Shown one piece after another: positions 21,679 through 47,260 of a stretch of 52,635 nt of DNA. The stretch spans positions 1-52,635 of IMG/VR virus record IMGVR_UViG_3300035670_000287; one strand, written 5' to 3'. The position numbers and the translations under genes were made by a program. This DNA is from a virus. Taxonomy: Duplodnaviria > Caudoviricetes. The notes under the pieces were generated by a model, which saw only the letters and a list, made by a program, of their open reading frames with translations, made no database searches and was not told the DNA's origin. Every line of letters starts with the position of its first letter. Position 1 is the stretch's first letter.

Positions 21679-21707
21679 TTGACAGTGGAAAAGGATTATG
21701 TTACTAT
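21679..21707 (+). promoter_or_regulatory. Promoter of the head operon
   Basis: TTGACA-17 nt-TACTAT with TG extension. Confidence 0.7.
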
Positions 21708-21720
21708 AAAGGAAGTCCAG

Positions 21721-21870
21721 TTGTTAAGTCTGGGTAGCCGATGCTACAAGATGGTCAGCTGGATAATCGAAAACCAAAACGAAATCGAGGGATATAAGGA
21801 TGGTAACATCTCCTTCTCTTTCACTGGTGGTATCTTAAAAGTCAAAGACGAAAATTACAAACAGTTATAA
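21721..21870 (+). CDS. Small leader protein (39-49 aa), possibly DUF2292/YezD-like
   Basis: Helix-then-beta pattern (GNISFSFTGGILKV); stop abuts the conserved RNA motif. Confidence 0.45.
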   Translation: MLSLGSRCYKMVSWIIENQNEIEGYKDGNISFSFTGGILKVKDENYKQL

Positions 21871-21936
21871 TGTAACTCCATGAACGAGGCATTATCCTGA
21901 GCACACTCCTCCGTGCTTAGGATTGTGCCTCTTTTT
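21871..21936 (+). terminator. Conserved leader motif plus terminator, copy 1
   Basis: TGTAACtccatGAAc-GAGGCA...TGCCTC-TTTTT. Confidence 0.75.
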
Positions 21937-21983
21937 ATAACTTAAACTTCCCAGTTGCTAAACAAATGGGATGAAAGGACAAC

Positions 21984-22793: not shown

Positions 22794-22871
22794 TAACTAC
22801 CCACAATGAAAACTCACGCTAATTGCTAAAGAGAAAATGGAGATAATTAAAAGGGTAAGGAGTAAAAAACA

Positions 22872-23351: not shown

Positions 23352-23383
23352 TAGTAAATTAACAACAAAATCGGGAGATTAAG

Positions 23384-24322: not shown

Positions 24323-24372
24323 AATCAACTAAATGGGTAGGGCTCGTTAGTACTGCAAGGACTAACTACTGT

Positions 24373-25983: not shown

Positions 25984-26012
25984 TTTACAAGTATCTTTAT
26001 ATTTGCTATACT
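25984..26012 (+). promoter_or_regulatory. Promoter of the glycosylation operon; near copy of 3843-3871
   Basis: TTTACA-17 nt-TATACT with TG extension. Confidence 0.75.
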
Positions 26013-26037: not shown

Positions 26038-27345
26038 ATGAGAAAAAAAGTTGGAATATTAACCAATTTTAATAGCTACCTTAAATCATATTCACCCCTC
26101 ATTATTGTTTCTGAACAAATCACTATGTTATTACAGGCTGGCTACGAACCAGTCGTAATAGTTACGGAGTCCTTTGACCCTCCGAAGGATTCCGTTTTTA
26201 GTAAGGTCAAACTTGAGTATATCCCCAACGTCTCGGTCTCTAACGAAGCCAAGCAAGACATCTCTTTTGAAACCGATATCTCCTTTTTAGAGCAGGAGAT
26301 GAGACGTATTATTAAAGACAACAATATCGAGGTGATGATTACCCACGACCTCATTTTCTTACCTGACTACGTCAAGCACAGGATAGCCTGCCTCTCCATG
26401 GTCAAAGACTTCCCGAAACTCCGCTGGCTCCACTGGGTACACTCCGCCACCAACCCCGAATCTCTCATTAATGAAAGAAAGAACTTTGAAGACAAATACC
26501 GAGAGATGCTCAAGCAGAAATTCCCTAATTCCTTCCTTGTTTATCCCAACGCCTATGATGTACCACGGGTAGCTTTGAACTTCGGCTATGAGACAGGCGA
26601 AATCAAGGTAGTACCTCACTCCACTAACTATATTGAATTTAACCACCCCCACCCGATAGTCGAAAGACTCATCGCCGAGAAGGGGCTTTTAGATGCCGAT
26701 GTTATTATGATATACCCCCTACGGATGGACAGGGGCAAGCAACCCCACGTCAACCTGGAAATCATCCGAGCCTGCAATAACCTCGGACTTGACGCACGCC
26801 TTATCTTTGTCAATTTCCACTCAACGGGAGACGACAAGGTTACATATAAGGAAGAAATCAAAACAAAAGCTGAGGAATACGGTATCAGCGAGAAAGTGGT
26901 CTTCATGAATGAATTTGACCCGTCTCTCCATACCGAGTCCCCGAGGGAACTGGTCTCTGACCTTTTGGAATTATCTAATGTTTTCTGCCTGCCATCGATG
27001 TCGGAGACCTACTCTCTGGTCGTTCAAGAAGCAATGCTTAAAGGAAACTTCTGTATCTTAAACCACGACTTCGCCCCCATGCGAAGTATCTACGGGGACA
27101 AGGCTATCTATCGCCAGTTCTCCTCTAACATCGCCTTTGACGGTTTAAACGGGACTATCGAAACCACCTTCTCCAACCCCGACGGTTACTACCACGATAT
27201 CGCTTGTTACATTAAATACATGCTCGATAACGATATGGTCTTAAAGGCTAAGACCTGGGCACGGAGGGATAGAAACCCCCACGCTGTCTTCAGAAACTAC
27301 GTCGAACCCCTACTATATAGTGGAGTGGAAGATGCCCAAAATTAA
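26038..27345 (+). CDS. GT-B (GT4-like) glycosyltransferase
   Basis: RMDRGK; PSMSETYSLVVQEAM (E-x7-E). Confidence 0.85.
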   Translation: MRKKVGILTNFNSYLKSYSPLIIVSEQITMLLQAGYEPVVIVTESFDPPKDSVFSKVKLEYIPNVSVSNEAKQDISFETDISFLEQEMRRIIKDNNIEVMITHDLIFLPDYVKHRIACLSMVKDFPKLRWLHWVHSATNPESLINERKNFEDKYREMLKQKFPNSFLVYPNAYDVPRVALNFGYETGEIKVVPHSTNYIEFNHPHPIVERLIAEKGLLDADVIMIYPLRMDRGKQPHVNLEIIRACNNLGLDARLIFVNFHSTGDDKVTYKEEIKTKAEEYGISEKVVFMNEFDPSLHTESPRELVSDLLELSNVFCLPSMSETYSLVVQEAMLKGNFCILNHDFAPMRSIYGDKAIYRQFSSNIAFDGLNGTIETTFSNPDGYYHDIACYIKYMLDNDMVLKAKTWARRDRNPHAVFRNYVEPLLYSGVEDAQN

Positions 27346-27793
27346 ATTAACTAAAAATAAGTTTGCCATTGTTGACCAAGAAGACATTAGGTTCTTAGGT
27401 CAGTGGAAATGGCAATTTTTGTCAAACGGCTATGCGGTAAGAACAACATCAATAAACGGAAAAAGAAAAGCAATTTTAATGCACAGAGTTATCAATAATA
27501 CACCAGAAGGAATGATAACTGACCACATAAATGGAAACAAGATAGATAATCGAAAGAAGAATCTAAGAACCTGTACTTATAGCAAGAATCTAATGAACCA
27601 AAGACTATCGTCCAGAAACACCCATGGACTTAAAGGAATAACACTGATAAAAAAAACAAAGAGATGGAAAGCACAGATAAAACTAAATGGTAAAAATTTA
27701 AATCTTGGGCATTTTGTAAACAAAGAAGATGCCCACACTGCTTACGTCAAAGCTGCTAAAAAGTATTTTGGTGAGTTTGCGAGGGAAAAGTGA
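27332..27793 (+). CDS. HNH-AP2 homing endonuclease
   Basis: MHRVI..DHINGNKIDNRKKNLR; WKAQI..LGHF..AY..AAKKYFGEFA. Confidence 0.9.
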   Translation: MPKIKLTKNKFAIVDQEDIRFLGQWKWQFLSNGYAVRTTSINGKRKAILMHRVINNTPEGMITDHINGNKIDNRKKNLRTCTYSKNLMNQRLSSRNTHGLKGITLIKKTKRWKAQIKLNGKNLNLGHFVNKEDAHTAYVKAAKKYFGEFAREK

Positions 27794-28593
27794 AAAGCCC
27801 AAAATTCTCTGTGATTTGTCCAGTCTATAGCGAGCCAACAGGCAACTTCAACCGCAAGCTGACTATCAGCCGTGCCATTAGAAGCATTTTAAATCAACAA
27901 TACCACGACTGGGAATTAATCTTGGTCAACGACGGCTCTCGGGACGAAATGCCTGAGATTTTGGATGAATGGGCAAAACATGATAATAGAATTAAAGTGT
28001 TCCACCAGCCCCCCTTAAACCGTGCCGTCGCCCGAAATAGAGGGATGGATGAAGCCACAGGCGAGTGGATATGCTGGCTGGACTCTGACGATGAGTATGT
28101 CTCCCACTACCTGCGAGCGATGGACAGAGCCATCACCGACTTACCTGAATACAACATTTTTAACTTTGAATCAATTATTTACTACCCCGACCACCACAGC
28201 CTTATCAGACCAGCCTTCAAGCCGAAGATAGAAGACGAAGGCCACGAATACTTTAGAAGTGGGCACATTGCAACGGGTAGCTTTATCTTTAGACGGGAGC
28301 TCTGGGCGAGCGACCCCAAATACCGTATCCCCGATGAATCCTCTCCTTACGGTTTTGCCGCCGCCAGTGGCTTCGATATGAGGTTCGGGGAAAACCACCC
28401 CGACGTCGAACCACCATCAGAAGGAGCTTTCACCGACCACAAGCTCAGGGTCGGGATATCTCTGGGCAATCCGTGGGGTGATGACTTCCTCCAGTTCTAC
28501 TATTTAACCAGAGATAACATCTCCAAGGCCTTGGATATCGCCCTCTACATCCAATACCCCAGAAGTAGTGAAGATGGATACGAACACTTCTAA
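27790..28593 (+). CDS. GT2 (GT-A) glycosyltransferase
   Basis: SVICPVY, VNDGSRD, ARNRG, WLDSDD. Confidence 0.9.
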   Translation: MKSPKFSVICPVYSEPTGNFNRKLTISRAIRSILNQQYHDWELILVNDGSRDEMPEILDEWAKHDNRIKVFHQPPLNRAVARNRGMDEATGEWICWLDSDDEYVSHYLRAMDRAITDLPEYNIFNFESIIYYPDHHSLIRPAFKPKIEDEGHEYFRSGHIATGSFIFRRELWASDPKYRIPDESSPYGFAAASGFDMRFGENHPDVEPPSEGAFTDHKLRVGISLGNPWGDDFLQFYYLTRDNISKALDIALYIQYPRSSEDGYEHF

Positions 28594-28606
28594 AATCGAT
28601 ATAGTT

Positions 28607-29083
28607 TTAATGCCTACTTTTCCAGTGCCAGTAGGTATCATAGTGTTTTCGACAAAGTCCTATTTTCTTAGTCGTTGGCTGTTTACATATTTGACAAATA
28701 CCATTATTTTTTGGTTTAAATTTATTCCAATCAAAAACTCTCGGTCTGTTGTTATGAAAAAGAGAAACATGGTTGCCTTGGTCTGTAATAATAAGATTGC
28801 CAAGAGAGTTATTCAATCTATCCCCATCTTTATGATGAACTTTTTCATTTCTATCAAGTTTTCTACCAATAGCTTTTTCAATAATGTAGCGATGTTCAAA
28901 AATTCTCTCTCCATTTATTGTAAGTTTTTTATATCCATCATGAAAACAACCAGAACCTTTTGGCCTGTTCATAAGGGGATAGTCGTTGAGTTTTCCCTTA
29001 TGTTTAACATAATCAAAGTGTTTTTGGCACAAATACCTACCAACAAGTTTTTCTTTAGAGCAATCTTCAAATATACATTTCAT
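28607..29083 (-). CDS. HNH homing endonuclease, antisense within the operon
   Basis: EHRYIIEKAIGR..VHHKDGDRLNN. Confidence 0.85.
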   Translation of the reverse strand: MKCIFEDCSKEKLVGRYLCQKHFDYVKHKGKLNDYPLMNRPKGSGCFHDGYKKLTINGERIFEHRYIIEKAIGRKLDRNEKVHHKDGDRLNNSLGNLIITDQGNHVSLFHNNRPRVFDWNKFKPKNNGICQICKQPTTKKIGLCRKHYDTYWHWKSRH

Positions 29084-29097
29084 AAGGGAAGTATACT

Positions 29098-29862
29098 ATG
29101 TCGTCAATAGAAAGTAAAGAGCCAACTTCAATAGTAATGACAGTATGGAATCGTCCCCAGATGAGCGAGCGGACAATCAAACACTTAGCCTTGGTCACCT
29201 CAACCCCTTCCAGACTAATTGTCGTCGATGACGGCTCAGACCGAGAGACCAACACTATGTTACAGAGATTGAAACGGGAGGGTTTTATTGATACTCTGAT
29301 TCGCAACAAATACAACATCGGGCTAGAACCATCTAAGAACCTCGGTTTACAGGCGGTCAAGTCCGATTATTTTATTTCCACCGATAATGACTGCTTACCA
29401 GAATACCCCAGGAAAGACGACTGGCTGGCCAAACTAATACACCTGATGGATATGAACCCAGGCTACGGAGCGATTGCCTGCAGGACGCAAGTAATGATAG
29501 GGACGGGGAATATCTTTGAACAAGCCGATGAGACAGGAGAACCCCTAGTCGACTTCCCTCATCCAGGCGGTTCGGTCAGAATCATGCAACGAAAACTGAT
29601 TACTAGAATCGGTGGCTGGCGAGACTGGGTAGAATCCAGAGGGTCAGAAGAAAAACACATCGGCGGCAAGTTAAGAGAGATTGGCTTCAGGTCAGCCTTT
29701 GCGACTCATGTCCGTTGCTACCACATGTTCGGCGATGACGCCAACTGGGGCTACGGCACGCTTGAACCAGAGAAACATGGTCACACCCCTATCTGGCATC
29801 CAGCTATTCAAAACGGCGATGATGAAGGGGATATCGAGAGGTGGCTCAAACATGAGGAATAG
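29098..29862 (+). CDS. GT2 glycosyltransferase
   Basis: VVDDGSD, N.GL..KN.G, TDND. Confidence 0.85.
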   Translation: MSSIESKEPTSIVMTVWNRPQMSERTIKHLALVTSTPSRLIVVDDGSDRETNTMLQRLKREGFIDTLIRNKYNIGLEPSKNLGLQAVKSDYFISTDNDCLPEYPRKDDWLAKLIHLMDMNPGYGAIACRTQVMIGTGNIFEQADETGEPLVDFPHPGGSVRIMQRKLITRIGGWRDWVESRGSEEKHIGGKLREIGFRSAFATHVRCYHMFGDDANWGYGTLEPEKHGHTPIWHPAIQNGDDEGDIERWLKHEE

Positions 29863-30955
29863 ACGCATTTTAAAACTAAAGGAAATCCACCTACCAGAAG
29901 TCGAAATCAAGATGATGGGCGACTTTAAGACTGGGGAGGGCTTTTGGAGTTTCATCCTACAGCACGACAAGCTAGAAGAAATCTACGGCAAGAAATTTCT
30001 AGCTTTAAAGATTTTCCGCCACGCCAAACCCGCTAAGATAGAGAACGTTTGGTGGGGAGGAGAAGGCTGCGAGAACGCTACCAAGTTGATAGAAGCCACC
30101 GTTATTAAGAACATCTACGCCCTAGACGGGCTGGCTCCTAAAGTCCACGATATCGTCGATGTCCATACCAAGAACCACTCCATAACCAAAGCACAGGTAG
30201 TAGAGTACGGCGGGGAGAGAGTAGAAGAAGGAGAACTCCCTAGGGGGTATCTGGACTTCCTTATCAACTACGGCAAGAAGCATCACATCTACGCCTGCCC
30301 CGAGCCCAGAGGAGAGAACGTCGTCGGCGGGAAGTATGTCGACTTCCAAGGCTGGAGGTTCACCGATAAGAAGGCCTATGAACAAGACCTAAAAGACCGC
30401 CTCAGTGAGTTTGTCTATTGGGGGCCGCCAGGAGTCTACCAGACTATCCCAGGCTTTATGGACGGACGCAGGAATACCGAGTATCGCATCAAACAACTAG
30501 GATTGGATAAGATAGACTTTAAAGGCAAGACGGTCTTAGATATTGGCTGTTCGGCAGGGGTGTTTTGCCACTATGCCATGAACCGTGGAGCAAAGAGAGT
30601 CATTGGCCTAGAAACCCCAGAGATAGCCAGAGTCGCTCAGGAACTCGCCAACTACCTCTACTACTGGCCACTAGACTTCTACGGGATTGATTTAAAGACC
30701 GCCACCTATAAGGACATCGTCGAGCTAACAGGCTTTGAAGAGTTTGATATTGTCTTCTTCCTCTCGATGGGGATGCACATAAACTATCCCGACTACGTTT
30801 CTAAGCTAACCAAAGAGACCCTAGTCTACGAAGGCAACCAACGACCCCAAGACCTCATCTGCCAGGAACAGATAACCAAAGATTTTAAAAAAATAAAAGT
30901 GTTGGAAAACACTACCGATTTATTGGAAAGGCCAGTATGGATAGCGAAAAAGTAA
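29852..30955 (+). CDS. Kinase-like plus class I SAM methyltransferase fusion
   Basis: ALKIF, GLAPKV, ENV..VDF at the N-terminus; VLDIGCSAG at the C-terminus. Confidence 0.7.
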   Translation: MRNRRILKLKEIHLPEVEIKMMGDFKTGEGFWSFILQHDKLEEIYGKKFLALKIFRHAKPAKIENVWWGGEGCENATKLIEATVIKNIYALDGLAPKVHDIVDVHTKNHSITKAQVVEYGGERVEEGELPRGYLDFLINYGKKHHIYACPEPRGENVVGGKYVDFQGWRFTDKKAYEQDLKDRLSEFVYWGPPGVYQTIPGFMDGRRNTEYRIKQLGLDKIDFKGKTVLDIGCSAGVFCHYAMNRGAKRVIGLETPEIARVAQELANYLYYWPLDFYGIDLKTATYKDIVELTGFEEFDIVFFLSMGMHINYPDYVSKLTKETLVYEGNQRPQDLICQEQITKDFKKIKVLENTTDLLERPVWIAKK

Positions 30956-31500
30956 AGTACGATAAAACCCAAGAGAAACTCTACGTTTACTGGAACGAAC
31001 TCTTTGACACCCACGGAGGATATATGCTCCCTGCGGGCACGAACGAGTATGCTATTTTAAGAGACCTCCTACTGGCCTTTATCCGAGACGGAGAGTCTGT
31101 CCTTGATTTAGGCTGTGCCTCTGGCGGAACGTATGACTGGATACTAGACCGAGAAAGAGACGTTGAATACAAAGGGACTGACTTCGCCGATAAGTTTGTT
31201 AAGGCTAATCAGGAACGCCACCCAGATATTTTATGGGAGGTAGAGGACTGCCGAGAATTAAATGAAGAAGACGGTAGTTTTGATGTCGTCATCTTATATG
31301 ATGTCCTGGACGGACTTGTCGGCTGGGAGCAAGCCCTGGACGAAGCCTACCGAGTCGCCAGGAAGAGAGTTCTAGTGATGATGTGGTGTGACCCTGCGAT
31401 GGACGACAAGCGAGCCTATATGGAAAAGTTCGGCACGGTCACCGATATTAAGGTAGAAGGTAATGTCCACTTCCACCGACTGTTAGTGGGGCTTAAATGA
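30937..31500 (+). CDS. Class I SAM methyltransferase
   Basis: VLDLGCASG, FDVV, EAYRVAR. Confidence 0.85.
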   Translation: MDSEKVKYDKTQEKLYVYWNELFDTHGGYMLPAGTNEYAILRDLLLAFIRDGESVLDLGCASGGTYDWILDRERDVEYKGTDFADKFVKANQERHPDILWEVEDCRELNEEDGSFDVVILYDVLDGLVGWEQALDEAYRVARKRVLVMMWCDPAMDDKRAYMEKFGTVTDIKVEGNVHFHRLLVGLK

Positions 31501-31572
31501 ACCTAGAGATAATCTTAATGGTAATCTTTATGATTTTAGAAATAATCTTTTTAATTATATTAGGAGGCAGAA

Positions 31573-32109
31573 TTGTTCATTAATCTTGGGTGCGGCAACA
31601 ACCCTTTACCAAAGCCGTGGCATAACATTGATAAATACTACTACCCAGGAACCGAGGAGATGAACCGAGCTGACGGTAACCCTGAAGACTTTGACTGGGA
31701 GCAGGGTGATTTTACTGACCTCTCTAAATGGGAAGACAACTCCGTAGATAGAGTTAATATCTGCCACGCCCTTGAACACGTCGGTTATCACGACGCCCAG
31801 AAAGCCCTAAGAGAAATATATCGTGTCCTCAAGCCAGGAGGAGATGTCGAGATAGAAGTCCCCGACCTGGATGTTATCTTCCAAGGAGTCATAGATGGAG
31901 CCTTCACCTATGAGAACATGATTGACTTGGTCTACGGGGGACAAGACAACAATGTCTATTGGGGTGGTCACTTCTGTGGCTTTACTAAGAATATGTTATT
32001 AAATGAGATGGAACGAGTCGGCTTTAAAGATATAGAATCAAGAGATGTCGGCTTCGGCACCTCCAAGCCTGAACCAGATAGAAACTTTAGATTAAGGGGT
32101 ATTAAATGA
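31573..32109 (+). CDS. Class I SAM methyltransferase
   Basis: NLGCG, HALEH, RVLKPGG. Confidence 0.85.
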   Translation: MFINLGCGNNPLPKPWHNIDKYYYPGTEEMNRADGNPEDFDWEQGDFTDLSKWEDNSVDRVNICHALEHVGYHDAQKALREIYRVLKPGGDVEIEVPDLDVIFQGVIDGAFTYENMIDLVYGGQDNNVYWGGHFCGFTKNMLLNEMERVGFKDIESRDVGFGTSKPEPDRNFRLRGIK

Positions 32110-33150: not shown

Positions 33151-33292
33151 ATGTAGCAGTTGTAAGAAAGAGACACAGTGGCTGGAACTAACCTGGAATA
33201 ACGCAGGCTATCAGTACCTCTACCACCAATGTGCCAAGTGCGGGCGACAGGTCTTCGTTAAGAAGACCCCACTACCGAGGGGCTGGAGATGA
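33137..33292 (+). CDS. Zinc-ribbon microprotein (51 aa, not in ORF track)
   Basis: CSSC...CAKC; ATGA coupling to the next gene. Confidence 0.6.
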   Translation: MFIHKCSSCKKETQWLELTWNNAGYQYLYHQCAKCGRQVFVKKTPLPRGWR

Positions 33293-36857: not shown

Positions 36858-37773
36858 GATTATGGTCTATGGTAACTTCGGTAAGTCCTGGGACGGCAGT
36901 ATCTGTGACGAGAAGCACGTCTCTGATGCCCTAGCAGTGATGGGTTATACCGTTATTGAGTGTCAACGGGAGATGGGGATAGCCGAAGGTGAACCAGATT
37001 TAGTTATCGTCTCTCAGTGGAACGGCTACCAGAAGAACTTCATTGAAGAATTAAAGAAGAAATATAACTGCCCTGTTGTTTACTGGGCATTTGACTACCA
37101 GTGGGAAGCCCACGAAGACTGGCACTTTGAGATGGCCACCCAAGCAGACCTCTTTCTCTCACCCGAAATGGAACACGCCCACGAATACAAGGAGGCCAAG
37201 GCTAACTTTCAATGGCTACCCCAAGGCTTTGCCCCGATGTTTTTAGATAGAATAGACGACCCCACTATCATCAAGGAGCACGAAATCGTCTTTACTGGAA
37301 CTTATTTGCCCACAGGAGGCTTCAGGACGGACGTTTTGAAAAAAGTTGACTCCGAGTACCACCTAGATGTCTTTTCAATAACCCAAAATGAGTGGAAAGC
37401 CCAAGGACTGAAGAATGTCCACCCCCCTGTTTTGGACTATGACCTGCCCGACTTGGTTTCTAAGACTAAGATTACCCTCTCGGTCGACCTCTTTCCAGGT
37501 CGGGCTGGTTGTTGGTCAGACAGAAACGCTCAGGTAATGTCCTGCGGTGGTCTGGTCTTATACAAATACACCCCCTTGTCAGAAGAAGAGTTTGGTGATG
37601 GAGTAGTATACTTCAACACAATAGATGAATGTCTGTCAAGAATAGACTTCTTATTAAAGAATCCTGATGTTGCCAAGGAGATAGCAAAGACGGGCTATTT
37701 CATTGCGAAAACCCGTCTTTCCGCTTTGGCACGAGTTAAGAATTTGATAACCATAATCGAGAACATATTATGA
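36838..37773 (+). CDS. GT-B glycosyltransferase (CgeB-like)
   Basis: IVFTG, SDR...SCGG, LLKNP pattern. Confidence 0.75.
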   Translation: MKTNINKIMVYGNFGKSWDGSICDEKHVSDALAVMGYTVIECQREMGIAEGEPDLVIVSQWNGYQKNFIEELKKKYNCPVVYWAFDYQWEAHEDWHFEMATQADLFLSPEMEHAHEYKEAKANFQWLPQGFAPMFLDRIDDPTIIKEHEIVFTGTYLPTGGFRTDVLKKVDSEYHLDVFSITQNEWKAQGLKNVHPPVLDYDLPDLVSKTKITLSVDLFPGRAGCWSDRNAQVMSCGGLVLYKYTPLSEEEFGDGVVYFNTIDECLSRIDFLLKNPDVAKEIAKTGYFIAKTRLSALARVKNLITIIENIL

Positions 37774-38702
37774 AGATAGCCCTGTATGACCCCAACCTAT
37801 ACAAGTTCACCCAAGCGATGCAAGACCACTGGGAGGCTCAGGGACACGAGTTCCGAAAGACTCTCTACTACGACCCAGCCATAGCGAACTGGGCTGATAC
37901 TCTCTGGTTTGACACTTGTGATAATAATATGAAACAGGCAACGATGAACAACGACCCAGGCTGGAAGCTGATGGATATGCCAGAGAAGAAACACGTCATC
38001 TGCCGAGTGATAGATATAGAAGCCTGGTGCGGACTGTATAGAGATGTAGACTGGTATCAAGTCGATGATGTTATCTTTATCGCCCCCCACATCAGAAGGC
38101 TGGTAGAGAACGATGTTAATTTTGTAGCCAACAATGTCCGAGTCCACGACATCCCCTGCGGCGTAGATACAGATAAGTTTACATATAAACAGAGTTTCAA
38201 AGACCCAACAGATATTGCTTGGGTAGCGGAGCGGTGGGACGCCAAGGGAATCACCTTAGCCCTGCAACTCATCGCTTCTCTCCCTGAGAAATATACCCTA
38301 CATGCTTGTGGTATCTGGGTACTACCTAACTGGTATAAGGCCTATGTCGACCACTTCATCAAAGAAAATAACCTAGAGCATAGATTCCTCGTCACCGAAA
38401 GGGTAGAGGATATGAACGCCTTCCTGGAAGATATGGACTATACCCTGTGTGCCTCCAAGAAGGAAGCCTTCTCCTACGCTATCGCTGAGGGGATGTCTAA
38501 AGGACTTAAACCCTTAATCCACAACTTCTACGGAGCACCAGAACTCTGGGACAGGAAGTATATCTGGAACACCATAGACCAAGCCAGAGACTTAGTCTTA
38601 GGCGAATATAACCCCGAAGAGTATCGCAAGTATATATTAGATAACTATACCTTGACAAAAATGTTAAATAGTTTTGATAAAATAATAGAAAGGAAAGTAT
38701 GA
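37770..38702 (+). CDS. GT4-like glycosyltransferase
   Basis: GVDTDKF, KG, EAFSYAIAEGMSKG. Confidence 0.85.
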   Translation: MKIALYDPNLYKFTQAMQDHWEAQGHEFRKTLYYDPAIANWADTLWFDTCDNNMKQATMNNDPGWKLMDMPEKKHVICRVIDIEAWCGLYRDVDWYQVDDVIFIAPHIRRLVENDVNFVANNVRVHDIPCGVDTDKFTYKQSFKDPTDIAWVAERWDAKGITLALQLIASLPEKYTLHACGIWVLPNWYKAYVDHFIKENNLEHRFLVTERVEDMNAFLEDMDYTLCASKKEAFSYAIAEGMSKGLKPLIHNFYGAPELWDRKYIWNTIDQARDLVLGEYNPEEYRKYILDNYTLTKMLNSFDKIIERKV

Positions 38703-39061
38703 AAGCTGAAGAAGCACAACAACTAGTTGATTTAATCAACACTCTAGTCGATGATGCGGTCATTGAAGAAGCCCAAATCGTCGAAGAACCTAAAGAGGTC
38801 GGACTATCAGAGGAAGAGACCAACAAACTCTTTAGACGAAGCGTCCCAGAGGGATTCTCTTGGGAAAACGCCAGACCTGCCAGAGCCGCCATCACAGGCG
38901 ACAGGGTCTTTCTAATCTTTGGAGAAGAGAGAAGATGGATACCCGACCTAGAGACTCTGCAGAAGATGGGTTGGGACTTAGGAGATGTTGAGAACATACC
39001 AGATGATGAGATAAGGAAGCTAAAAGAAGGCTTCGGTCTTTTCTCTTGCAAACTATGGTAA
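38699..39061 (+). CDS. Hypothetical protein
   Basis: Coupled within the operon. Confidence 0.6.
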   Translation: MKAEEAQQLVDLINTLVDDAVIEEAQIVEEPKEVGLSEEETNKLFRRSVPEGFSWENARPARAAITGDRVFLIFGEERRWIPDLETLQKMGWDLGDVENIPDDEIRKLKEGFGLFSCKLW

Positions 39062-40008
39062 AAGAAAATACTTTTTGCTATGGAATTATTCGGGACGACC
39101 TAATCGAAAGGTCTCTGGAAACCCTCTATAGTAATACGCCTCCCAATTTCTATGTCTACATTATAGACCAGACATACGATGGATTAGACGTGGGGTACTT
39201 CAGAAGAAAGTTTAGAGACCTGATGATAATAAGAAGCCCGATAACTGACAAACACATAACAGGGAACTTAGGCTTTGCTAAGTGTTTTAATATCGGCCTG
39301 AAGCTCTGTGAAACCCCCTACTTCACTACTTGCAATGACGATGTAGAATTTGTGCACCCCAACTGGTATCAAGGGGCGGTAGAAACCTTTAAGAAGGTAG
39401 ACGAATCTACCCCAGATAGACCGTGTATACTAGTAACCCCCTCATCTATCAAACTTCCAGATTGGTCAGTTGGTAGGCCGAGAGGGGATGACTTCTATAT
39501 TATGGACTATAAGAAAAGCTATACCGACGAAGACTACGAACATCTATTAAATGATGAGCACTATGTAAACGAACACTTAACGATTAAACCCGATACAGTT
39601 ATTGATGGGATTACTCTTTACTTAGGGATGGGGAAGACCGACCTGCTGCGAGAGGTGGGAGGCCTTGATGAGAGATTCAGTAGTGGTGGAGAGGACTATG
39701 ATTTCTGCTGTCGTGCGTATACCCTGGGGTATAGAACTGTTGGGACAACTTTGTCTTGGGTCTTTCACCATTGGAGTATGAGCTTTGCCTCCTCTAATGA
39801 AGACGAAAAAGTGAAGAAACTTATAGACCCGAATATGACCTGGAACAGTTTAACCGAGTGTTGGGGGGAGGGGAGACACGATGTCTGGGGAACACGATGT
39901 AAGGTCTGTGGTGAAAGTATGAGAATAAAAAAAGGAACAAAATATGCAACCTGCTCAAAAGGACACGAAGAATACGAAGTCCCTAGACCAGCGAAGGTTG
40001 ACCTGTAG
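39046..40008 (+). CDS. GT2 glycosyltransferase
   Basis: NLGFAKCFNIG, CNDD, GGLDERF..GEDYDFC. Confidence 0.9.
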   Translation: MQTMVKENTFCYGIIRDDLIERSLETLYSNTPPNFYVYIIDQTYDGLDVGYFRRKFRDLMIIRSPITDKHITGNLGFAKCFNIGLKLCETPYFTTCNDDVEFVHPNWYQGAVETFKKVDESTPDRPCILVTPSSIKLPDWSVGRPRGDDFYIMDYKKSYTDEDYEHLLNDEHYVNEHLTIKPDTVIDGITLYLGMGKTDLLREVGGLDERFSSGGEDYDFCCRAYTLGYRTVGTTLSWVFHHWSMSFASSNEDEKVKKLIDPNMTWNSLTECWGEGRHDVWGTRCKVCGESMRIKKGTKYATCSKGHEEYEVPRPAKVDL

Positions 40009-40087
40009 TAGACAAAACACCAAATTTATAGTATTATATTAGAGGTGTAACTATATGAACAAGGCACGGACTCTGCCTTGTTTTTTT
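40009..40087 (+). promoter_or_regulatory. Promoter plus conserved leader motif/terminator, copy 2
   Basis: TAGACA-17 nt-TATTAT, then TGTAACtatatGAAcAAGGCA..TGCCTTG-T7. Confidence 0.75.
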
Positions 40088-40115
40088 ATTTAATAGAGTC
40101 CCCAGGAACTCCTAT

Positions 40116-40433
40116 ATGGAAGATTTTATTGTCAAAGAATCAAACATAGACACGAATGGTTTGTTCGCCAATCGTGATTATTTACCAGACGAACTGGTAA
40201 TGAGCTTTCAAGGTAACCCACCGAAGATGATTTACATAAATCATTCGTGTGAGCCTTCTTGCTATACTATTGAGCCAGTCAAGGACGACTACCAGACCCA
40301 TACCCTTCATGCTGGAAAATGGGGACTAAAGGAAGGCCAAGAGATTACTTATGACTACAGGCTTGGGCAAGACTTAGATTATTTTAACAATACTATCAGT
40401 GATAATTGTAACTGCGAGAAATGTCGTGGATAA
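40116..40433 (+). CDS. SET-domain protein with post-SET cysteines
   Basis: GLFA, YINHSCEPS, GQEITYDY, CNC..CRG. Confidence 0.85.
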   Translation: MEDFIVKESNIDTNGLFANRDYLPDELVMSFQGNPPKMIYINHSCEPSCYTIEPVKDDYQTHTLHAGKWGLKEGQEITYDYRLGQDLDYFNNTISDNCNCEKCRG

Positions 40434-43400
40434 AACTTACAAAGTCATTGGTAACAGCATGTCGTCAGATAATATTGTCGATGGCGACTTAGTCACGGTC
40501 TCTAACCGTCAGCCAAAAGACGGAGATATCGTAGTTGCCGAGTGGAATGACGAATTTATTGTAAAAACCTATCGTGATTCAGCCCTATACTGTGGTGAGT
40601 ATTTATTTACAGACAGTGATTTTGTGGTTGTAGGTGTGGTGGATGAAGTTATTAAAGATAGGTCTAGTAGGTTTTATATAGAGAGCGTTCATGGTAAAGC
40701 GACAACTTCTACATCGTCAACCTCTAGCTCTACCTCTCAGTCTTTCAGTACCAGCTCCACCTCTACCTCTACCACCACAGCTCCTCCCACCGTGGCTCTC
40801 GGTTCTCCTGCCGATAATGCTACAATTTCTGACACTACGCCAGACCTAACGTTTACTGGCACATCCAACGGAGGAGCACAGGTTAAATACCAAGTGCAGG
40901 TGGCATCAACACCCTTTTTCGAAGTTCTAGATAGTTATAGCGACACTAGAGATTACGCCGTATCACTCAAGATTACAACTGGCGACACGGAGGCAGGTCA
41001 GTCATTCCACGCAGTAGGAACGCTGGGTAGCTGTAAATTCTATCTTGGAAAATGGGGGACAATTTCGGGGAATATCTATGCAAAGCTATATGCACTGTCT
41101 GGGGCTTATGGTGGCGGAGATGATGTCCCTACCGGTGCAGCCTTGGCAACATCAGACGCTCTCGATGTGTCAGATTTTACAACAACCATGACAGAAAAAA
41201 CATTTACATTTTCTGGAGCAAATCAATATGCGATGAATGGAGATTACGTAATCGCTGTATCTTCGTCTATCGGAGACGATAGTAATTATGTGAATATCGG
41301 CTCTGCCGTAACGACACCAACACATACAGGCAATCCCTGCACATATAAAAGCCCGACTTGGACGGCGTCAAATGTCCACGATTTTCTGTTTTCTGTTCTG
41401 TCAACAGGGGCAACGCCCCTCATCGACGCCCTCTCCACCAACCTGACAGGTTTCACTACCGACGCTGATGGTTTCTATAACTCAGGAGTAGAGACTACTT
41501 ATACGGTTCAATCTGCTCTCTCCGCAGGTACTTACTACTGGAGAGTTAGGGCAGCCGAATCTGCTGGTACTTGGGGGGCGTGGAGTCCAGGGGACTCTAC
41601 TTTAGGGTATGACCATTTTCATCTGGAGACAGCCACCACTTCTACAAGCAGCACCTCAAGCAGTACCTCAATTTCTACATCTTCTACAAGTTCCTCTACT
41701 TCAAGGTCTGTATCTACTAGCAGCACATCCTCTAGTACTAGCAGTTCTATTAGTACATCCAGCACCAGCTCTAGCACCTCTAGTTCAACTTCTGTTTCTA
41801 CCTCTAGTACTAGCAGCAGTACTTCAATATCTACTAGTTCTACCTCTCAATCAGAAACAACCTCAACTTCATCGACCAGCAGCAGTACCTCAATTTCGAC
41901 ATCCAGTACTTCCGAATCAACATCTTCATCAATTTCTACAAGCTCTACATCAGAGTCAACTTCCAGCTCAACTAGTTCTACTAGCTCTTCTACCTCAACA
42001 TCAATCTCAACATCCAGTACCTCATCGAGCACCTCTAGCTCTTCATCTTCATCTACTTCAACGACCACTGCTCCTCCAGGATGGTACAATGCCTCATGGC
42101 CATACAGATTTAAAGTAACCGTTTTAGCCTCTAAGGTAGATGCCGACCTGACAGATTTTCCTGTTTACTTTGACCTAAACGATGCCCCTGCAGGCTTCCA
42201 CACCTATTGTAATCAAACAGACGCCAGGGATATCAGGGTTACAACCTCAGACCAGCAGACCGAAGTCCCAAGAGAGGTGGTTTTCTATGACTCCGCTACC
42301 GACACTGGAGAACTTCACTTTAAGGGCAATATTGATGGAGACGACAATACTGATTTTTATGTTTACTATGGTAATGCCGATGCTACTGAGCCAGCCGAAG
42401 ATGCTACTTATGGCCGAGAGGCGACTTGGAATAGTAATTATAAGCTAGTCAAGCATTTAAACGATATTACCACATCGACTACACTTGATAGTACTTCTAG
42501 CGACCAGGATGGAACAAAGAAGGGTGCTGGCGAACCAGCCGTAGCTACCGACCTAATTGGCAAGTGCCAATCATTTGACGGGTCAGATGATTATATTTCT
42601 GGAACAAATGGGACAAGTTTAACAAGCACGGCCATTACAATTCAAGCGTGGGTCAATTTTACAGACTTTACCAAAGCAAACCCCAGAGTTATTGAAGTCA
42701 GAGATGGAACATATTCTGTTCAGATAATCCGAGACGGAGGTTCACAAAAGTTTGTTACCAAGCATAGTGAATGGCAGTCAGCTATATCGGGGACACAGTG
42801 GAACATTCCGTCTACTGGAACCGACTACATGATTCACGCCGTTTGGGATGCATCTAATGACACTACAGTCTTTTACTGTAATGGTGTCGCTCAGGAAGGT
42901 GCGGCTAATAATAACATCGGGGTCGGAAACCAGGCGAGTAAGTATTATATCGGTATGAGAAGTGACCTTGTCGACACATCACAGCTAAAGGGTGTCGTTG
43001 ACGAGGTTCGTCTTTCTACAACCGCCCTATCTTCCACATGGGTTTCTACTGAATATAATAACCAATCAGACCCAAGTGCATTTTATCAAGTTGGTACGGC
43101 TGAATCAGGGACCACTACTTCCACTTCCTCCACCAGCTCTTCTACATCACTCTCTACTTCCAGCACTAGTTCGAGCACCTCCAGTTCCACCTCTATCAGC
43201 ACTAGTTCTACTTCGAGCTCAACCAGTACAAGCATTTCTACTTCTTCAACCAGTAGCTCAACTTCTAGTTCTATCAGTACATCAACGTCTTCTACTAGTT
43301 CCAGTACCAGCTCCTCGACCTCCATAAGTACCTCCAGTACTTCTCAGTCTACATCTACCAGTATTTCAACATCGTCCACGTCCTCCTCTACCAGTAGTTC

Positions 43401-46400
43401 TACCTCTATTTCTACCAGCTCAACGTCTCAATCTACGAGTACGTCCCAATCAACCTCCACCTCTAGTACTTCACAATCTACCAGCACCTCTCAGAGTACG
43501 TCAACATCATCAACTAGCCAAAGTACCTCTACTTCAATCTCTACTTCATCGACTTCCCAAAGCACCAGCACGAGCCAGTCAACGTCAACCAGTTCTACTT
43601 CCCAATCGACTAGCACATCTCAATCTACAAGTACCAGTTCAACCTCGCAAAGTACTTCCACAAGTCAGAGCACATCTACATCCAGCACCTCACAAAGCAC
43701 TAGCACTTCAATAAGTACAAGCTCTACCTCACAGAGTACGAGTACAAGCATATCTACTTCCTCCACGTCTCAATCAACATCTACGTCTATCTCTACCTCA
43801 AGCACAAGTCAGTCGACAAGTACGTCTATTTCCACTTCCAGTACGTCACAGTCTACCAGCCAGTCTACATCCACCAGTATCTCGACTAGCAGTACCTCCA
43901 GTTCTACCTCACAGTCTACGACCTCATCTACCTCTACCTCCACGACGACTGTCCCCTGGTACTATGCCGATACTATTACAGTAAATACTGGCTCTATCAA
44001 CTCAGGGATAATAGATGATACTTACAGCGATAACGGCACAAGACTAGTCTTAAATGAAGTAACCCCTGCCGCTCCTGGATTTGACTATGACTTTATCTTT
44101 GGTACTGGCGGGCAAACAGTCCCTGACGGTATTTATAAGCTCACCTTTAATGGATACTATGATGGTAACCCCGCCCATAATGTAAAACTCCAACAGTATA
44201 AGTTTACTGCTCCTGCTGGGTGGGTTAATGTCACGGCCAACGCTCAGGACTTCCCAGATAATTCCAGTGACCAATCTTATGAGTTCCCACTACTATCTCC
44301 GACATCTGACTACATTAGTGGTGGAGAGATACGCTTAAAGATAATCCATACCTCTAACGGCTCGGCTGGACATTATATGAACATAGACTATATGAAGCTG
44401 GAGACCTACTTTACTACCTCTACTTCATCTACTTCTAGCTCCACATCTACCAGCTCCACAAGTAGCTCTACTTCAACCTCTGTATCTACCAGCACATCAT
44501 CCACTAGCTCTTCTACTTCCACTAGTATCAGCACTTCTTCTACCAGCTCCTCCACCAGCTCGTCTATCTCTACTTCTTCAACAAGCCAGAGTACTTCCAC
44601 CAGTCGCTCTACAAGTACCTCCTCGACATCACAGAGCACTTCTACGAGCATTTCTACCTCAAGTACCAGTCAGAGTACCTCCACGAGTCAATCCACTAGT
44701 ACCTCTAGTACTTCCCAGTCGACTAGCACTAGTCAGTCAACGAGCACTTCTTCAACTTCCAGCTCCACTTCTATATCTACAAGCTCTACTTCCCAGAGTA
44801 CATCTGTCTCTACTAGCTCAAGCACGTCTACCACGCTTTCTATGACCACTTCGACTAGTTCGACATCCTCGTCAACGTCTCAATCTACATCAACTTCGAC
44901 AACGATACCTCCCGCCTGCGTTGTTGACCAACAACAGACAACAGCCCTTGCCGATGCCTCGTACCAATGGCCAGTGGGTAGCGTTACTGGGTTGTGGGAA
45001 GAGGGGGGACAATCCTTTACCCCAAGCATAACAGCGAACCTTTGTTATGTTAACTTCGCATTTAGTAGAGACGGCAACCCTACCGACAATGTCGTCTGCC
45101 AGCTCTGGTCATCTGATTCTGGGGATACTCCTCAATCTCTTTTAGCAACGGCAGATAACTCTCATAACGTAACGTCCTTTCCTGTCGCCCCCAACTATGG
45201 GATTTATGGGTTTACCTTTACTGGGGCAAATTCTATCCAACTGCTTTCAGGGAGCAAGTATGCTTTCGTTATCAGTCGCACTGGGGGTGATGACGGAACC
45301 AATCATGTCCACCTTGTTGGTAGCGATACTGACACTTATTCACGGGGTAAAAGGATTAAAAAGGGGGTTACTTGGGCTGCCAGTTCTCTAAGCGACCTAT
45401 ACTTCAACGAACACTACGACAACACCACCACGACATCTACGTCGACATCATCGACTAGCACTTCGACTAGTCTATCTACCAGCTCGACAAGTTCGTCAAC
45501 GTCCCAAAGTACATCTGTCTCAACAAGCAGTACTAGCCAGAGTACAAGTAACAGCACTTCTAGTACCTCATCATCTACTTCGCAGAGTGTTTCCACCTCT
45601 AGTACAAGCCAGAGCACATCTACCAGCACGAGCATATCTACCAGCTCGACCTCACAGAGCACAAGCACTAGCGTATCTACATCTTCAACGTCACAGTCAA
45701 CCTCTAGCTCTATTAGCACTAGCAGTACGTCTTCTTCGACCTCAATCTCTACATCCGCATCCACCTCTTCAACCTCGTCTAGTACTTCTCAGTCAACCTC
45801 TATCTCTACTAGCTCCACCAGCTCTTCAACTTCCCAGTCCACATCTTCCTCTACATCTATATCTACCTCAAGCACCAGTAGCTCTACCACCCAGAGTTGG
45901 ACAACATCTACATCTAGTACGAGCAGTAGTACTTCTAGTACCTCAGAGAGCACTTCAACAAGCACATCAACATCCTTGAGCACATCTTCTACAAGCTCAA
46001 GCACAAGTTCATCAACTTCTACATCTACTACTACCGTCCCAGCAACATGCGTAATAGACCAAGAAAACACAACCTCTGGGTCAGGGGCTACTCTTACTGT
46101 TCCAAGATTCCAATCTTTTACGCCCTCTGTTAATGCTACTATTTGTAATATTGCTCTTTATATGTTTGGCGGCGGTACTTCTGTCGGAGATACAAGCGTT
46201 TCTATTTATACAGTATCTGGTGGATTGCCAAGCACGCTGATAGAAACATCCCCCTTTGTTCAAAATAATAATGGCATTGGGGCAAGCACAAGATGGATTA
46301 GTTTCCCGTTCTCATCAACTTCAGTTCTTTATTCTGGAGTCCTTTATGCCATAGTTATAGAGTCAAGCCTTCCAACATCAGCCGCTGGAGTTGCTGCCTC

Positions 46401-47187
46401 TTCTGGAGACACATATACTAGCGGGGTATCTGGTATTTATACCTTTGGGTCATGGCGGTTAGGGAGTGCGGGAGTTGACCTTACCTTTAAAGAATACTAC
46501 GAGAATACAACCCTCTTTACAACCTCAACTTCAAGTACTTCTTCTAGTACATCGAGTACTTCTAGCTCAACTTCTACATCGTCCACTTCGTCAAGCACAT
46601 CGGTTTCTATAAGCACCAGCTCCAGTACGACAATAAGCTGGACGACATCTACAAGCTCAACCAGTAGCTCAACCTCAACTAGCGTTAGTACATCCAGTAC
46701 CTCCCAGAGCACATCTACTTCTATATCAACGAGTTCAACAAGTTCATCCACGTCTACCAGTATCAGCACCAGCTCTACTAGTCAGTCAACTTCTACCAGT
46801 ATCTCCACGAGTTCGACCTCCAGTTCTACTTCTACGAGTATCTCGACATCCAGCACATCCAGCTCGACGTCTAGCTCAACTTCTCTCTCAACCAGCAGTA
46901 CTTCATCTAGTACCTCAACTTCGATTTCTACTTCAACGACAATCTCCACTTCCAGTACTTCTAGTTCCACTAGCTCTACGAGTACCTCAATCTCTACCTC
47001 CACCACCCTACCGCCAGACCCGAAGAAGGATAAGAAGCCTAAGTTCCACGTCGTTAGACAAAGAGAGATGCTTAACATTAAGACGTTCAACCCGAAGTTT
47101 TATGTAGTCAAAGAAAACAAGAGATTCAAGACCGTTAAAGATAATAAATCAGTAGACATTAATAACGATAAACCGAGGATGAGCTAA
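40399..47187 (+). CDS. Giant mucin-like putative virion adhesin: S24 peptidase-like N-terminus, six Ser/Thr tracts, DUF2341 plus LamG-like and other beta-sandwich domains (start possibly GTG 40426)
   Basis: VIGNSM..DGD..VK; WYNASWPYR..LTDFPV..YVYYGN; GVVDEVRLS..EYNNQ; three QSF-type domains. Confidence 0.8.
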   Translation: MIIVTARNVVDKTYKVIGNSMSSDNIVDGDLVTVSNRQPKDGDIVVAEWNDEFIVKTYRDSALYCGEYLFTDSDFVVVGVVDEVIKDRSSRFYIESVHGKATTSTSSTSSSTSQSFSTSSTSTSTTTAPPTVALGSPADNATISDTTPDLTFTGTSNGGAQVKYQVQVASTPFFEVLDSYSDTRDYAVSLKITTGDTEAGQSFHAVGTLGSCKFYLGKWGTISGNIYAKLYALSGAYGGGDDVPTGAALATSDALDVSDFTTTMTEKTFTFSGANQYAMNGDYVIAVSSSIGDDSNYVNIGSAVTTPTHTGNPCTYKSPTWTASNVHDFLFSVLSTGATPLIDALSTNLTGFTTDADGFYNSGVETTYTVQSALSAGTYYWRVRAAESAGTWGAWSPGDSTLGYDHFHLETATTSTSSTSSSTSISTSSTSSSTSRSVSTSSTSSSTSSSISTSSTSSSTSSSTSVSTSSTSSSTSISTSSTSQSETTSTSSTSSSTSISTSSTSESTSSSISTSSTSESTSSSTSSTSSSTSTSISTSSTSSSTSSSSSSSTSTTTAPPGWYNASWPYRFKVTVLASKVDADLTDFPVYFDLNDAPAGFHTYCNQTDARDIRVTTSDQQTEVPREVVFYDSATDTGELHFKGNIDGDDNTDFYVYYGNADATEPAEDATYGREATWNSNYKLVKHLNDITTSTTLDSTSSDQDGTKKGAGEPAVATDLIGKCQSFDGSDDYISGTNGTSLTSTAITIQAWVNFTDFTKANPRVIEVRDGTYSVQIIRDGGSQKFVTKHSEWQSAISGTQWNIPSTGTDYMIHAVWDASNDTTVFYCNGVAQEGAANNNIGVGNQASKYYIGMRSDLVDTSQLKGVVDEVRLSTTALSSTWVSTEYNNQSDPSAFYQVGTAESGTTTSTSSTSSSTSLSTSSTSSSTSSSTSISTSSTSSSTSTSISTSSTSSSTSSSISTSTSSTSSSTSSSTSISTSSTSQSTSTSISTSSTSSSTSSSTSISTSSTSQSTSTSQSTSTSSTSQSTSTSQSTSTSSTSQSTSTSISTSSTSQSTSTSQSTSTSSTSQSTSTSQSTSTSSTSQSTSTSQSTSTSSTSQSTSTSISTSSTSQSTSTSISTSSTSQSTSTSISTSSTSQSTSTSISTSSTSQSTSQSTSTSISTSSTSSSTSQSTTSSTSTSTTTVPWYYADTITVNTGSINSGIIDDTYSDNGTRLVLNEVTPAAPGFDYDFIFGTGGQTVPDGIYKLTFNGYYDGNPAHNVKLQQYKFTAPAGWVNVTANAQDFPDNSSDQSYEFPLLSPTSDYISGGEIRLKIIHTSNGSAGHYMNIDYMKLETYFTTSTSSTSSSTSTSSTSSSTSTSVSTSTSSTSSSTSTSISTSSTSSSTSSSISTSSTSQSTSTSRSTSTSSTSQSTSTSISTSSTSQSTSTSQSTSTSSTSQSTSTSQSTSTSSTSSSTSISTSSTSQSTSVSTSSSTSTTLSMTTSTSSTSSSTSQSTSTSTTIPPACVVDQQQTTALADASYQWPVGSVTGLWEEGGQSFTPSITANLCYVNFAFSRDGNPTDNVVCQLWSSDSGDTPQSLLATADNSHNVTSFPVAPNYGIYGFTFTGANSIQLLSGSKYAFVISRTGGDDGTNHVHLVGSDTDTYSRGKRIKKGVTWAASSLSDLYFNEHYDNTTTTSTSTSSTSTSTSLSTSSTSSSTSQSTSVSTSSTSQSTSNSTSSTSSSTSQSVSTSSTSQSTSTSTSISTSSTSQSTSTSVSTSSTSQSTSSSISTSSTSSSTSISTSASTSSTSSSTSQSTSISTSSTSSSTSQSTSSSTSISTSSTSSSTTQSWTTSTSSTSSSTSSTSESTSTSTSTSLSTSSTSSSTSSSTSTSTTTVPATCVIDQENTTSGSGATLTVPRFQSFTPSVNATICNIALYMFGGGTSVGDTSVSIYTVSGGLPSTLIETSPFVQNNNGIGASTRWISFPFSSTSVLYSGVLYAIVIESSLPTSAAGVAASSGDTYTSGVSGIYTFGSWRLGSAGVDLTFKEYYENTTLFTTSTSSTSSSTSSTSSSTSTSSTSSSTSVSISTSSSTTISWTTSTSSTSSSTSTSVSTSSTSQSTSTSISTSSTSSSTSTSISTSSTSQSTSTSISTSSTSSSTSTSISTSSTSSSTSSSTSLSTSSTSSSTSTSISTSTTISTSSTSSSTSSTSTSISTSTTLPPDPKKDKKPKFHVVRQREMLNIKTFNPKFYVVKENKRFKTVKDNKSVDINNDKPRMS

Positions 47188-47188
47188 A

Positions 47189-47260
47189 TTGACTAATTAG
47201 CTAAAATGTAGTATTATATCTTTAGTGTAACCCGAAGGGCACAGAAGTGTGTCCTTTTTA
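47189..47260 (+). promoter_or_regulatory. Promoter plus conserved leader motif/terminator, copy 3
   Basis: TTGACT-17 nt-TATTAT, then TGTAACccGAAGGGCACA..TGTGTCCTTTTT. Confidence 0.7.

Follow-up and report, generated by a model that had tools for sequence, protein, structure and literature searches.

Three paralogous promoter-proximal terminators precede structural-gene blocks of a tailed phage and may gate late transcription

In phage lambda, the late switch consists of a constitutive sigma70 promoter (PR′), a 194-nucleotide (nt) 6S leader, the terminator tR′, and the antiterminator Q, and it stands before the structural genes. Lambdoid phages also carry moron cassettes, in which a promoter, a gene, and a terminator are inserted in a late operon, and which are sporadic among relatives. 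For the Pseudomonas phages LUZ19, LUZ24, 14-1, YuA, PAK_P3, and phiKZ, a report based on ONT-cappable-seq describes 42 terminators in 5′ untranslated regions (5′ UTRs), just downstream of promoters, 34 of which gave short RNAs (<250 nt) and long read-through transcripts with one 5′ end (PMC10914365). The small phage proteins Xp10 p7 (PMC6624301) and P23-45 gp39 (PMC3351154) are described as letting host polymerase ignore intrinsic terminators, with no RNA signal. Here, we examine three units, each with a predicted sigma70-type promoter (P1 to P3) and an intrinsic terminator (T1 to T3), that precede structural-gene blocks in an uncultivated virus of the Caudoviricetes from a subsurface metagenome (IMG/VR record IMGVR_UViG_3300035670_000287). 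The window is the whole stretch of DNA that was analyzed, 52,635 base pairs (bp) long. We tentatively read the units as gates on late transcription.

A search of the window for TGTAAC-N2-6-GAA-N0-3-GGCA gave exactly three matches, at 21871, 40046, and 47226 and all on the + strand (sites 1, 2, and 3), in agreement with the three TGTAAC-GAA-RGGCA-T-run sites listed in an earlier note on this DNA. None of 100 shuffles gave three matches (mean, 0.02), a statistic that is post hoc, the pattern having been written from the same three sites; TGTAAC alone occurs nine times on the + strand and six times on the − strand. All three sites, and all three orthologous sites in relatives, have the GC-rich hairpin, U-tract, and upstream A-tract of intrinsic terminators, and the terminators lie 16–180 nt 3′ of sigma70-type promoters. 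The T2 hairpin (40057–40083) folds with −12.5 kcal/mol (z −3.1), which one of 200 shuffles equaled, and the T3 hairpin with −13.6 kcal/mol (z −4.1). When the six sequences are folded, the “GAA” is in every case base-paired to the U's that open the tail: it is the A-tract of the terminator, as in many intrinsic terminators, and no separate recognition element. The “RGGCA” is likewise the base of the stem, which leaves TGTAAC as an unpaired element 2–5 nt 5′ of the A-tract. Sites 2 and 3 have just 10–13 nt ahead of the hairpin, and an alternative (antiterminator) fold is absent from all six minimum-free-energy structures.

By their sequences, the three units are one paralogous family. Copies 1 and 2 have 18 of 21 positions in common in TGTAACTNNATGAACRAGGCA, and copies 2 and 3 share TAGTATTATAT-N5-GTGTAAC, the two elements that the earlier note had named, although with a spacer of N5 and not N6. 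A covariance model of the six sequences, R1, matched the three window sites and the three orthologues only in 175,413 bases, a search space that took in the rest of the genome, including other terminators (e.g., 11567–11591 and 8109–8201), and three distant relatives. Rfam, which had been proposed as a check alongside such a model, gave no match at gathering score across the whole window; within 39950–40150, there were only weak matches at E ≤ 10, the best at E 0.22 and far below gathering score. Neither an N/nut signal (boxA plus boxB hairpin) nor a two-stem put-type RNA was found, given the 10–13 unpaired nt at sites 2 and 3 and the absence of Rfam matches. The UGUAAC box is most simply explained by shared ancestry of the three units, which would need no shared ligand, and any constraint would fall at most on the UAAC core.

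The order of a sigma70-type promoter and then an intrinsic terminator before late genes, the promoters being predicted, is conserved in three relatives. Site 1 has counterparts in two viral contigs, L002 (capsid 74% identical) and L001/G002 (81%), and both keep the order of promoter, small open reading frame (ORF), and terminator. The promoter pattern TTGACA-N14-TGn-TAnnnT is also kept, with TACTAT in the window, TAAAAT in L002, and TAGAGT in L001. The T1 orthologues have a long hairpin and a T-run (−35.7 kcal/mol in L002 and −28.8 kcal/mol in L001), with the basal stem conserved and the inner stems entirely different. Around site 1, blastn found no similarity between the window and L001; because the flanks have thus diverged beyond detection while the promoter hexamers and terminator are preserved, these parts are under selection. 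Site 3 has a counterpart in one metagenome contig, L014 (adaptor 66% identical), with TTGATA-N17-TATAAT, a 19-nt leader (ATATTTGTTACCTTAACGC), an almost identical hairpin, a ribosome-binding site, and the adaptor gene. There, the upstream gene encodes a Gp10_C tail protein of 224 amino acids (aa), unrelated to the giant protein of the window, and so the unit travels with the downstream operon. Searches for close relatives with the SET-domain gene in viral contigs, with the scaffold gene, and with the adaptor gene in genome contigs found none. The same phage is contained in four DNA sequencing runs of one study, with no differences at sites 2 and 3, and in no listed RNA run.

Each of the three window sites has a promoter-like match of 10/12 upstream. 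A generic promoter scan showed no enrichment over shuffles (36 versus 28.5; 23 versus 21.6), and the support for P1 and P3 therefore comes from their conservation in relatives. The scan placed no promoter-like site in the interval from T1 to the beginning of the scaffold gene, and capsid expression would therefore need read-through.

The box itself is less constant. It reads TCTAAC-GAAAGAGG in L002 and CGTAAC-TCTACAC-AAGAGG in L001, where the TAA is the stop codon of the small ORF, and its place in L014 is taken by GTTACCTTAAC (TGTTAC..TTAAC). The TAAC core is present in 3/3 orthologous sites and in 6/6 sites overall; the full motif pattern was matched at none of the four relative loci compared. 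This is weak evidence that the core may be under constraint (estimated p about 0.01–0.05, with sites that depend on alignment choices). The DNA pattern TAGTATWATAT-N7-12-TAAC-N2-7-RGGCAC gave six loci in viral contigs, all of them unrelated strong promoters leading into a ribosome-binding site with no terminator, and was set aside.

Other sequence features lie near the units. The complementarity of GGACTCT (40068–40074, in the T2 loop) to AGAGTCC (40095–40101), pointed out previously, can be read directly in the sequence; sites 1 and 3 have no counterpart, and the pairing could give rise to a pseudoknot or block the 5′ UTR. The non-coding 9-mer TGCTAAACA, which lies ahead of the scaffold-like gene in its 5′ UTR, agrees at 9/9 bases among the window, L002, and L001 amid differing non-coding DNA, has its sole exact window copy there, and may be a translational operator or other binding site. 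A leader peptide was considered at site 2, where GAGGTG-N7-ATG (40042–40093) opens a 12-codon frame (40055–40093) across T2. Because nothing equivalent exists in copies 1 and 3 or in L014, it was rejected as a general mechanism; a ribosome translating this frame over the whole T2 hairpin and T-run could in principle block termination there. A start-stop arrangement (ATG or GTG, then TAA, inside RTGTAA) had no usable ribosome-binding-site spacing, and a 12-nt match between T1 and the early region near 16440 (GCATTATCCTGA) is a chance match, about 80 such 12-mer pairs being expected in 52 kb by our estimate.

Promoters and hairpins elsewhere in the window include a fourth promoter-then-terminator unit in the early region, on the minus strand (16496–16365). 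Its promoter matches the consensus TTGACA-16-TATAAT at 12/12 positions (16496–16469), and its hairpin (16410–16377, −19 kcal/mol, followed by TTTTT) lies about 50 nt after the predicted start, for a predicted RNA of about 90 nt. This hairpin holds the −35 hexamer of the next promoter (16393–16365), and R1 does not match it. A second + strand promoter family, TTTACA-N11-ATTTGCTATACTA-N-GGAAAA (extended −10), has copies at 3843–3871 and 25984–26012, which precede the CHAP endolysin gene and the glycosylation cluster, respectively; neither copy has a terminator after it. Inside the first glycosyltransferase gene lies a 13-bp hairpin with TTTT (26164–26195), similar to one in G002 (2598–2571), which could reflect coding conservation or an internal attenuator.

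The small ORF before copy 1 had been proposed as a candidate antiterminator of 39–49 aa that loosely resembles DUF2292/YezD. An ORF of 49 aa (or 61–63 aa) is indeed present, but a 39-aa form would lose the invariant arginine of the family to which its product belongs. A profile search of 1.84 billion representatives returned 26 proteins at E ≤ 1e-3. The family alignment holds the window protein and 20 others (21 sequences, all 49–78 aa); P0001, the window's own protein, and P0014, P0016, P0017, P0019, and P0020 (731–3832 aa, partial matches) were dropped. These share the core R-x6-W-x13-G, then an alternating hydrophobic stretch and LKV, with R21 invariant and W28 and G42 nearly so. By sequence, then, the product is a member of an uncharacterised small-protein family, 30–40% identical between the window and L002 or L001. 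The resemblance to DUF2292/YezD was not borne out: Pfam returned nothing at E ≤ 10, whether the query was the window ORF (two lengths) or its L001 and L002 orthologues, and none of the 21 family members matched a Pfam family or PF10055. PF10055 also had no match at E ≤ 10 in six frames of the whole genome, in a search that matched 4 of 14 control genomes (above cut-off in one) and made no profile-to-profile comparison. A profile search of the PDB with the family gave nothing meaningful and no solved structure; a word-index protein search found the small ORF itself only; the Atlas gave no usable match, the model having a predicted local distance difference test (pLDDT) score of 0.45; and a pattern search found no relative among its 88 matches. 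Nothing supports a link of this family to RNA, RNA polymerase, or transcription, and as judged from these searches the small ORF is not implicated.

How the small protein would be made also bears on its role. The L001 ORF begins with an ATG that follows GAGGG and precedes the −35 hexamer by 39 nt, which places promoter 1 inside the ORF; because the ORF starts before this hexamer, P1 cannot express it there. As for the window, transcription beginning about 7 nt past TACTAT, at the predicted position near 21714, would leave the 21721 start codon without its AAGGAAG ribosome-binding site. On account of both, it is more likely that the small protein is translated from transcripts coming from the terminase and portal genes and that P1 mainly feeds the T1 leader.

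We then considered what the units might do. The scans from which gene content was taken (70 ORFs against Pfam; 18 + 39 ORFs against PHROGs) turned up neither an RNA polymerase nor a sigma factor nor any known late activator; transcription appears to depend on the host's polymerase, and timing must therefore act on that enzyme. A near-consensus promoter is throttled by a terminator set behind it, an arrangement that makes sense only where read-through depends on conditions or the short RNA is itself the product. Throttled promoters and reliance on host polymerase thus favor a late-gene gate, and our preferred reading, held tentatively, is that the promoter-proximal terminators gate the structural genes by conditional read-through, in the logic of lambda PR′-tR′, through a phage or host factor not seen by homology. 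Host RNA polymerase would start near 21714, 40044, and 47224; default termination would then give RNAs of about 44–48 nt from P2 and about 36–41 nt from P3, and from P1 an RNA of roughly 220 nt that takes in the 3′ portion of the small ORF. T1–T3 would also stop polymerase that had started farther upstream, and transcription would reach the scaffold/capsid, SET and giant protein, and adaptor/tail blocks only by read-through. The terminators, the conservation of P1 and P3, the order of the parts, and the paralogy are observed; we infer the start sites, default termination, and any regulation.

Several points weigh against such gating. Both the start sites and how efficiently the hairpins terminate are predicted. 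The same Pfam and PHROGs scans, which very divergent proteins could escape, yielded no Q, no N, and no antiterminator of any other known type, and the 10–13-nt leaders leave little room for nut- or put-type RNA signals. P2 is without comparative support, no relative covering site 2. TGTAAC is exact in 0/3 orthologous sites, and paralogy by itself explains why the three terminators look alike. In the more distant relatives G001 and G003 (capsid 47% and adaptor 30–33% identical), there is no promoter and no terminator before the adaptor gene, and G004, a distant complete phage found with the glycosyltransferase 39046–40008 as query (54% identical), has a weak hairpin and no promoter after that gene. 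The Pseudomonas precedent shows partial termination and not regulation (PMC10914365). Almost as likely as a conditional gate, then, is that these are ordinary partial terminators which constitutively set mRNA 3′ ends and fixed expression ratios, with internal promoters topping up and no dedicated factor. On that account, which also remains short of an even chance, the promoter-then-terminator order merely places the hairpin in the downstream 5′ UTR. The empty antiterminator scans, the lack of TGTAAC conservation in orthologues, and the modest T2 and T3 hairpins all suit it, and mixed short and long transcripts are described as common in phages with no known regulator (PMC10914365). However, a terminator after a promoter cuts that promoter's own output, and the conserved order is left unexplained; in L014, the unit accompanies the gene that follows it rather than the one whose transcripts it would end; and the strongest of the hairpins, T1 (−31.4 kcal/mol), stands before the genes for the most abundant virion proteins, with no promoter after it.

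The short RNAs could themselves be the products, although we consider this unlikely. P2-T2 and P3-T3 would then be genes for 36–48-nt RNAs with a single-stranded GUGUAAC 5′ end and a U-tailed hairpin, pairing with host or phage mRNAs, and T1 would yield a 3′-UTR-derived RNA with the same UGUAAC. This would be compatible with a gate or with leaky termination, and StxS, from the PR′ leader of a Shiga-toxin phage, is described as a small RNA that coexists with a gate (PMC7547250). The layout of promoter, unpaired 10–13 nt, hairpin, and U-tract fits such genes, as does the identical 7-mer at the predicted 5′ end of two units, and 29 5′-UTR-derived non-coding RNA candidates were proposed in the Pseudomonas phages (PMC10914365). 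Yet the putative seed is not kept in L014, and RNAs so short would be unusual as stable regulators. Moreover, the two units hold the sole + strand copies of GTGTAAC and 0/6 minus-strand TGTAAC are preceded by G, so that neither phage strand holds a GTTACAC target site.

Somewhat less probable still is the model of the earlier note, in which the 21721–21870 protein binds UGUAAC..GAA in nascent RNA, prevents the three terminator hairpins, and so times late expression. It has in its favor that the small ORF lies between P1 and T1 and could be made before the gates open, that its position is kept in three phages, that UGUAAC is unpaired and 2–5 nt from each stem, and that the TAAC core is found at every site. 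The conserved architecture is compatible with an antitermination-type gate, but the RNA motif did not hold up: the exact UGUAAC is missing from the orthologues, GAA is part of the stem, and no alternative fold appears. The proposed antiterminator fared no better, having no similarity to DUF2292 or to any known fold or RNA-binding or antiterminator family, a reading frame that P1 cannot express in L001, and a window start that would remove the ribosome-binding site of the 21721 start. A reading given no more weight than this model is a new late-gene antitermination system in which a protein of the R..W..G family (49–78 aa), encoded in the first gate, would open three paralogous, ultra-short leader-terminator gates, each a UAAC box followed by a hairpin with an A-tract, so that the first gate would be a self-timing switch controlling capsid, fibre, and tail genes. 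Judged from sequence, the anatomy is real and conserved, and antitermination is plausible in outline with its particulars unsupported.

Table 1. Positions of the promoter-terminator units and of the surrounding genes and regions in the window
Feature	Position	Strand	Details
Small ORF	21679–21870	+	Starts TTG 21679 (63 aa), GTG 21685 (61 aa), TTG 21721 (49 aa)
Promoter P1	21679–21707	+	TTGACA-N17-TACTAT, TG one base before −10 hexamer; predicted start near 21714
TGTAAC box, copy 1	21871–21876	+	Unpaired in fold, 5 nt before A-tract/stem
Terminator T1	21882–21936	+	A-tract GAAC, 46-nt hairpin 21886–21931, T5 21932–21936; −31.4 kcal/mol, z −8.4
TGCTAAACA	21956–21964	+	Non-coding 9-mer, 5′ UTR of scaffold-like gene
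Promoter P2	40009–40037	+	TAGACA-N17-TATTAT; predicted start near 40044
TGTAAC box, copy 2	40046–40051	+	About +2 to +8 of predicted transcript
Terminator T2	40057–40087	+	Stem GAACAAGGCA/TGCCTTGTTT, loop CGGACTC, T7 run 40081–40087
AGAGTCC	40095–40101	+	Complementary to GGACTCT in T2 loop
Promoter P3	47189–47217	+	TTGACT-N17-TATTAT; predicted start near 47224
TGTAAC box, copy 3	47226–47231	+	
Terminator T3	47234–47259	+	Stem GAAGGGCACA/TGTGTCCTTT, loop GAAG, hairpin 47234–47257, T5 47255–47259
Early region	about 8.2–16.8 kb	both	Small ORFs, many strong sigma70-type promoters
Large terminase	17572		Rightward block
Portal	19188		Rightward block
Two small ORFs	between portal and small ORF 21679/21721–21870		Rightward block
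Scaffold-like gene	21984		Rightward block
Decoration-like gene	22872		Rightward block
Major capsid	23384		Rightward block
14-kb glycosylation cluster	26038–40008		Glycosyltransferases, methyltransferases, GDP-mannose dehydratase, epimerases, several HNH endonucleases
SET-domain gene	40116		Rightward block
2262-aa Ser/Thr-rich protein	40399–47187		Rightward block
SU10-type adaptor	47277		Rightward block
Further tail genes	across the record's ends to endolysin (3897), on to about 8.1 kb		

The record is a complete virus of 44% GC, and its first 127 bp are identical to its last 127 bp, which marks it as a closed assembly. No relative at the DNA level was found among 50,697 GenBank phage records, with the window DNA as query in near and distant modes, and the capsid protein is at most 37% identical to that of any named phage. 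Downstream of site 1 are the scaffold-like and major capsid genes, of site 2 the SET-domain gene and the 2262-aa Ser/Thr-rich protein, and of site 3 the SU10-type adaptor and tail genes. The placement of a promoter and then a terminator before head, giant-fibre, and tail operons, as claimed earlier, thus stands for the architecture, but the interval between sites 1 and 2 also holds the 14-kb glycosylation cluster.

The first gene behind the second unit encodes a 105-aa SET-domain (lysine methyltransferase-like) protein (40116–40433; Pfam E 1.1e-7), and a SET-domain gene in a phage structural region is unusual. The 2262-aa protein consists of 51% Ser + Thr (690 S, 458 T), with long (S/T)n linkers between globular modules and a peptidase S24 (LexA/UmuD-like) segment at its N-terminus; it had no match in the PDB. 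Its repeats show length variants in metagenome contigs, with joints at 43273/45475. Directly upstream of its region lies the glycosylation cluster, including a GDP-mannose 4,6-dehydratase gene, and together the two suggest, from sequence features, a heavily O-glycosylated, mucin-like virion fibre made with phage-encoded enzymes. At least five HNH endonuclease genes are present (10294, 24373, 27320, 32680, and 33289), two with AP2 domains, and several are scattered through the capsid/glycosylation region, a distribution expected of free-standing homing endonucleases.

Should the gates be regulated, they would make a compact system in which to look for a new antiterminator, with three short, nearly minimal targets in a phage for which a polymerase, a sigma factor, and a Q or N homologue were all looked for and not detected. 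If read-through is constitutive, they would be one more case of the promoter-proximal terminators that long-read transcriptomics reports in many phages. The terminators and promoters are, besides, well-defined parts, in units of 36–48 nt with a conserved hairpin.

Compared with the described systems, site 1 resembles a moron in having a promoter, a small ORF, and a terminator between the portal and scaffold genes. Unlike a moron, the unit sits at the same place in three diverged phages, the L001 promoter lies inside the ORF, which begins 39 nt before the −35 hexamer, and sites 2 and 3 hold no gene. The p7 and gp39 proteins are the kind of factor that a gate here would need, and no homologue of either was detected; as described, they differ in not being tied to promoter-proximal terminators or a leader motif (PMC6624301; PMC3351154).

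The layout is closer to lambda PR′-tR′, with a sigma70-type promoter, an intrinsic terminator, and structural genes in that order, a short terminated RNA as by-product, and a P1-T1 leader of similar length (about 220 nt). It differs from lambda in having three gates rather than one, two leaders of only 36–48 nt, no Q-family gene found, and no −10-like pause element evident: by inspection, TGTAAC matches TATAAT at 4/6 positions but not at the key A2 and T6, AACTAT is found in copy 2 alone, and P1, P2, and P3 have no DNA element in common. The layout would thus work like lambda PR′-6S-tR′ but does not belong to that class, since it has three gates, no Q gene was found, and a sigma-dependent pause element is not evident. 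The 5′-UTR terminators of the Pseudomonas phages are like those described here in lying directly 3′ of promoters and in occurring several to a phage, and here too short and read-through transcripts would coexist; there, the terminators were measured on RNA (PMC10914365), whereas here they are predicted from DNA, and the two sets have no sequence relation. Collectively, the units are best placed in this class of phage promoter-proximal (5′-UTR) terminators, already documented in Pseudomonas phage transcriptomes, and are set apart from the Pseudomonas phage units as three paralogous units standing before structural-gene blocks.

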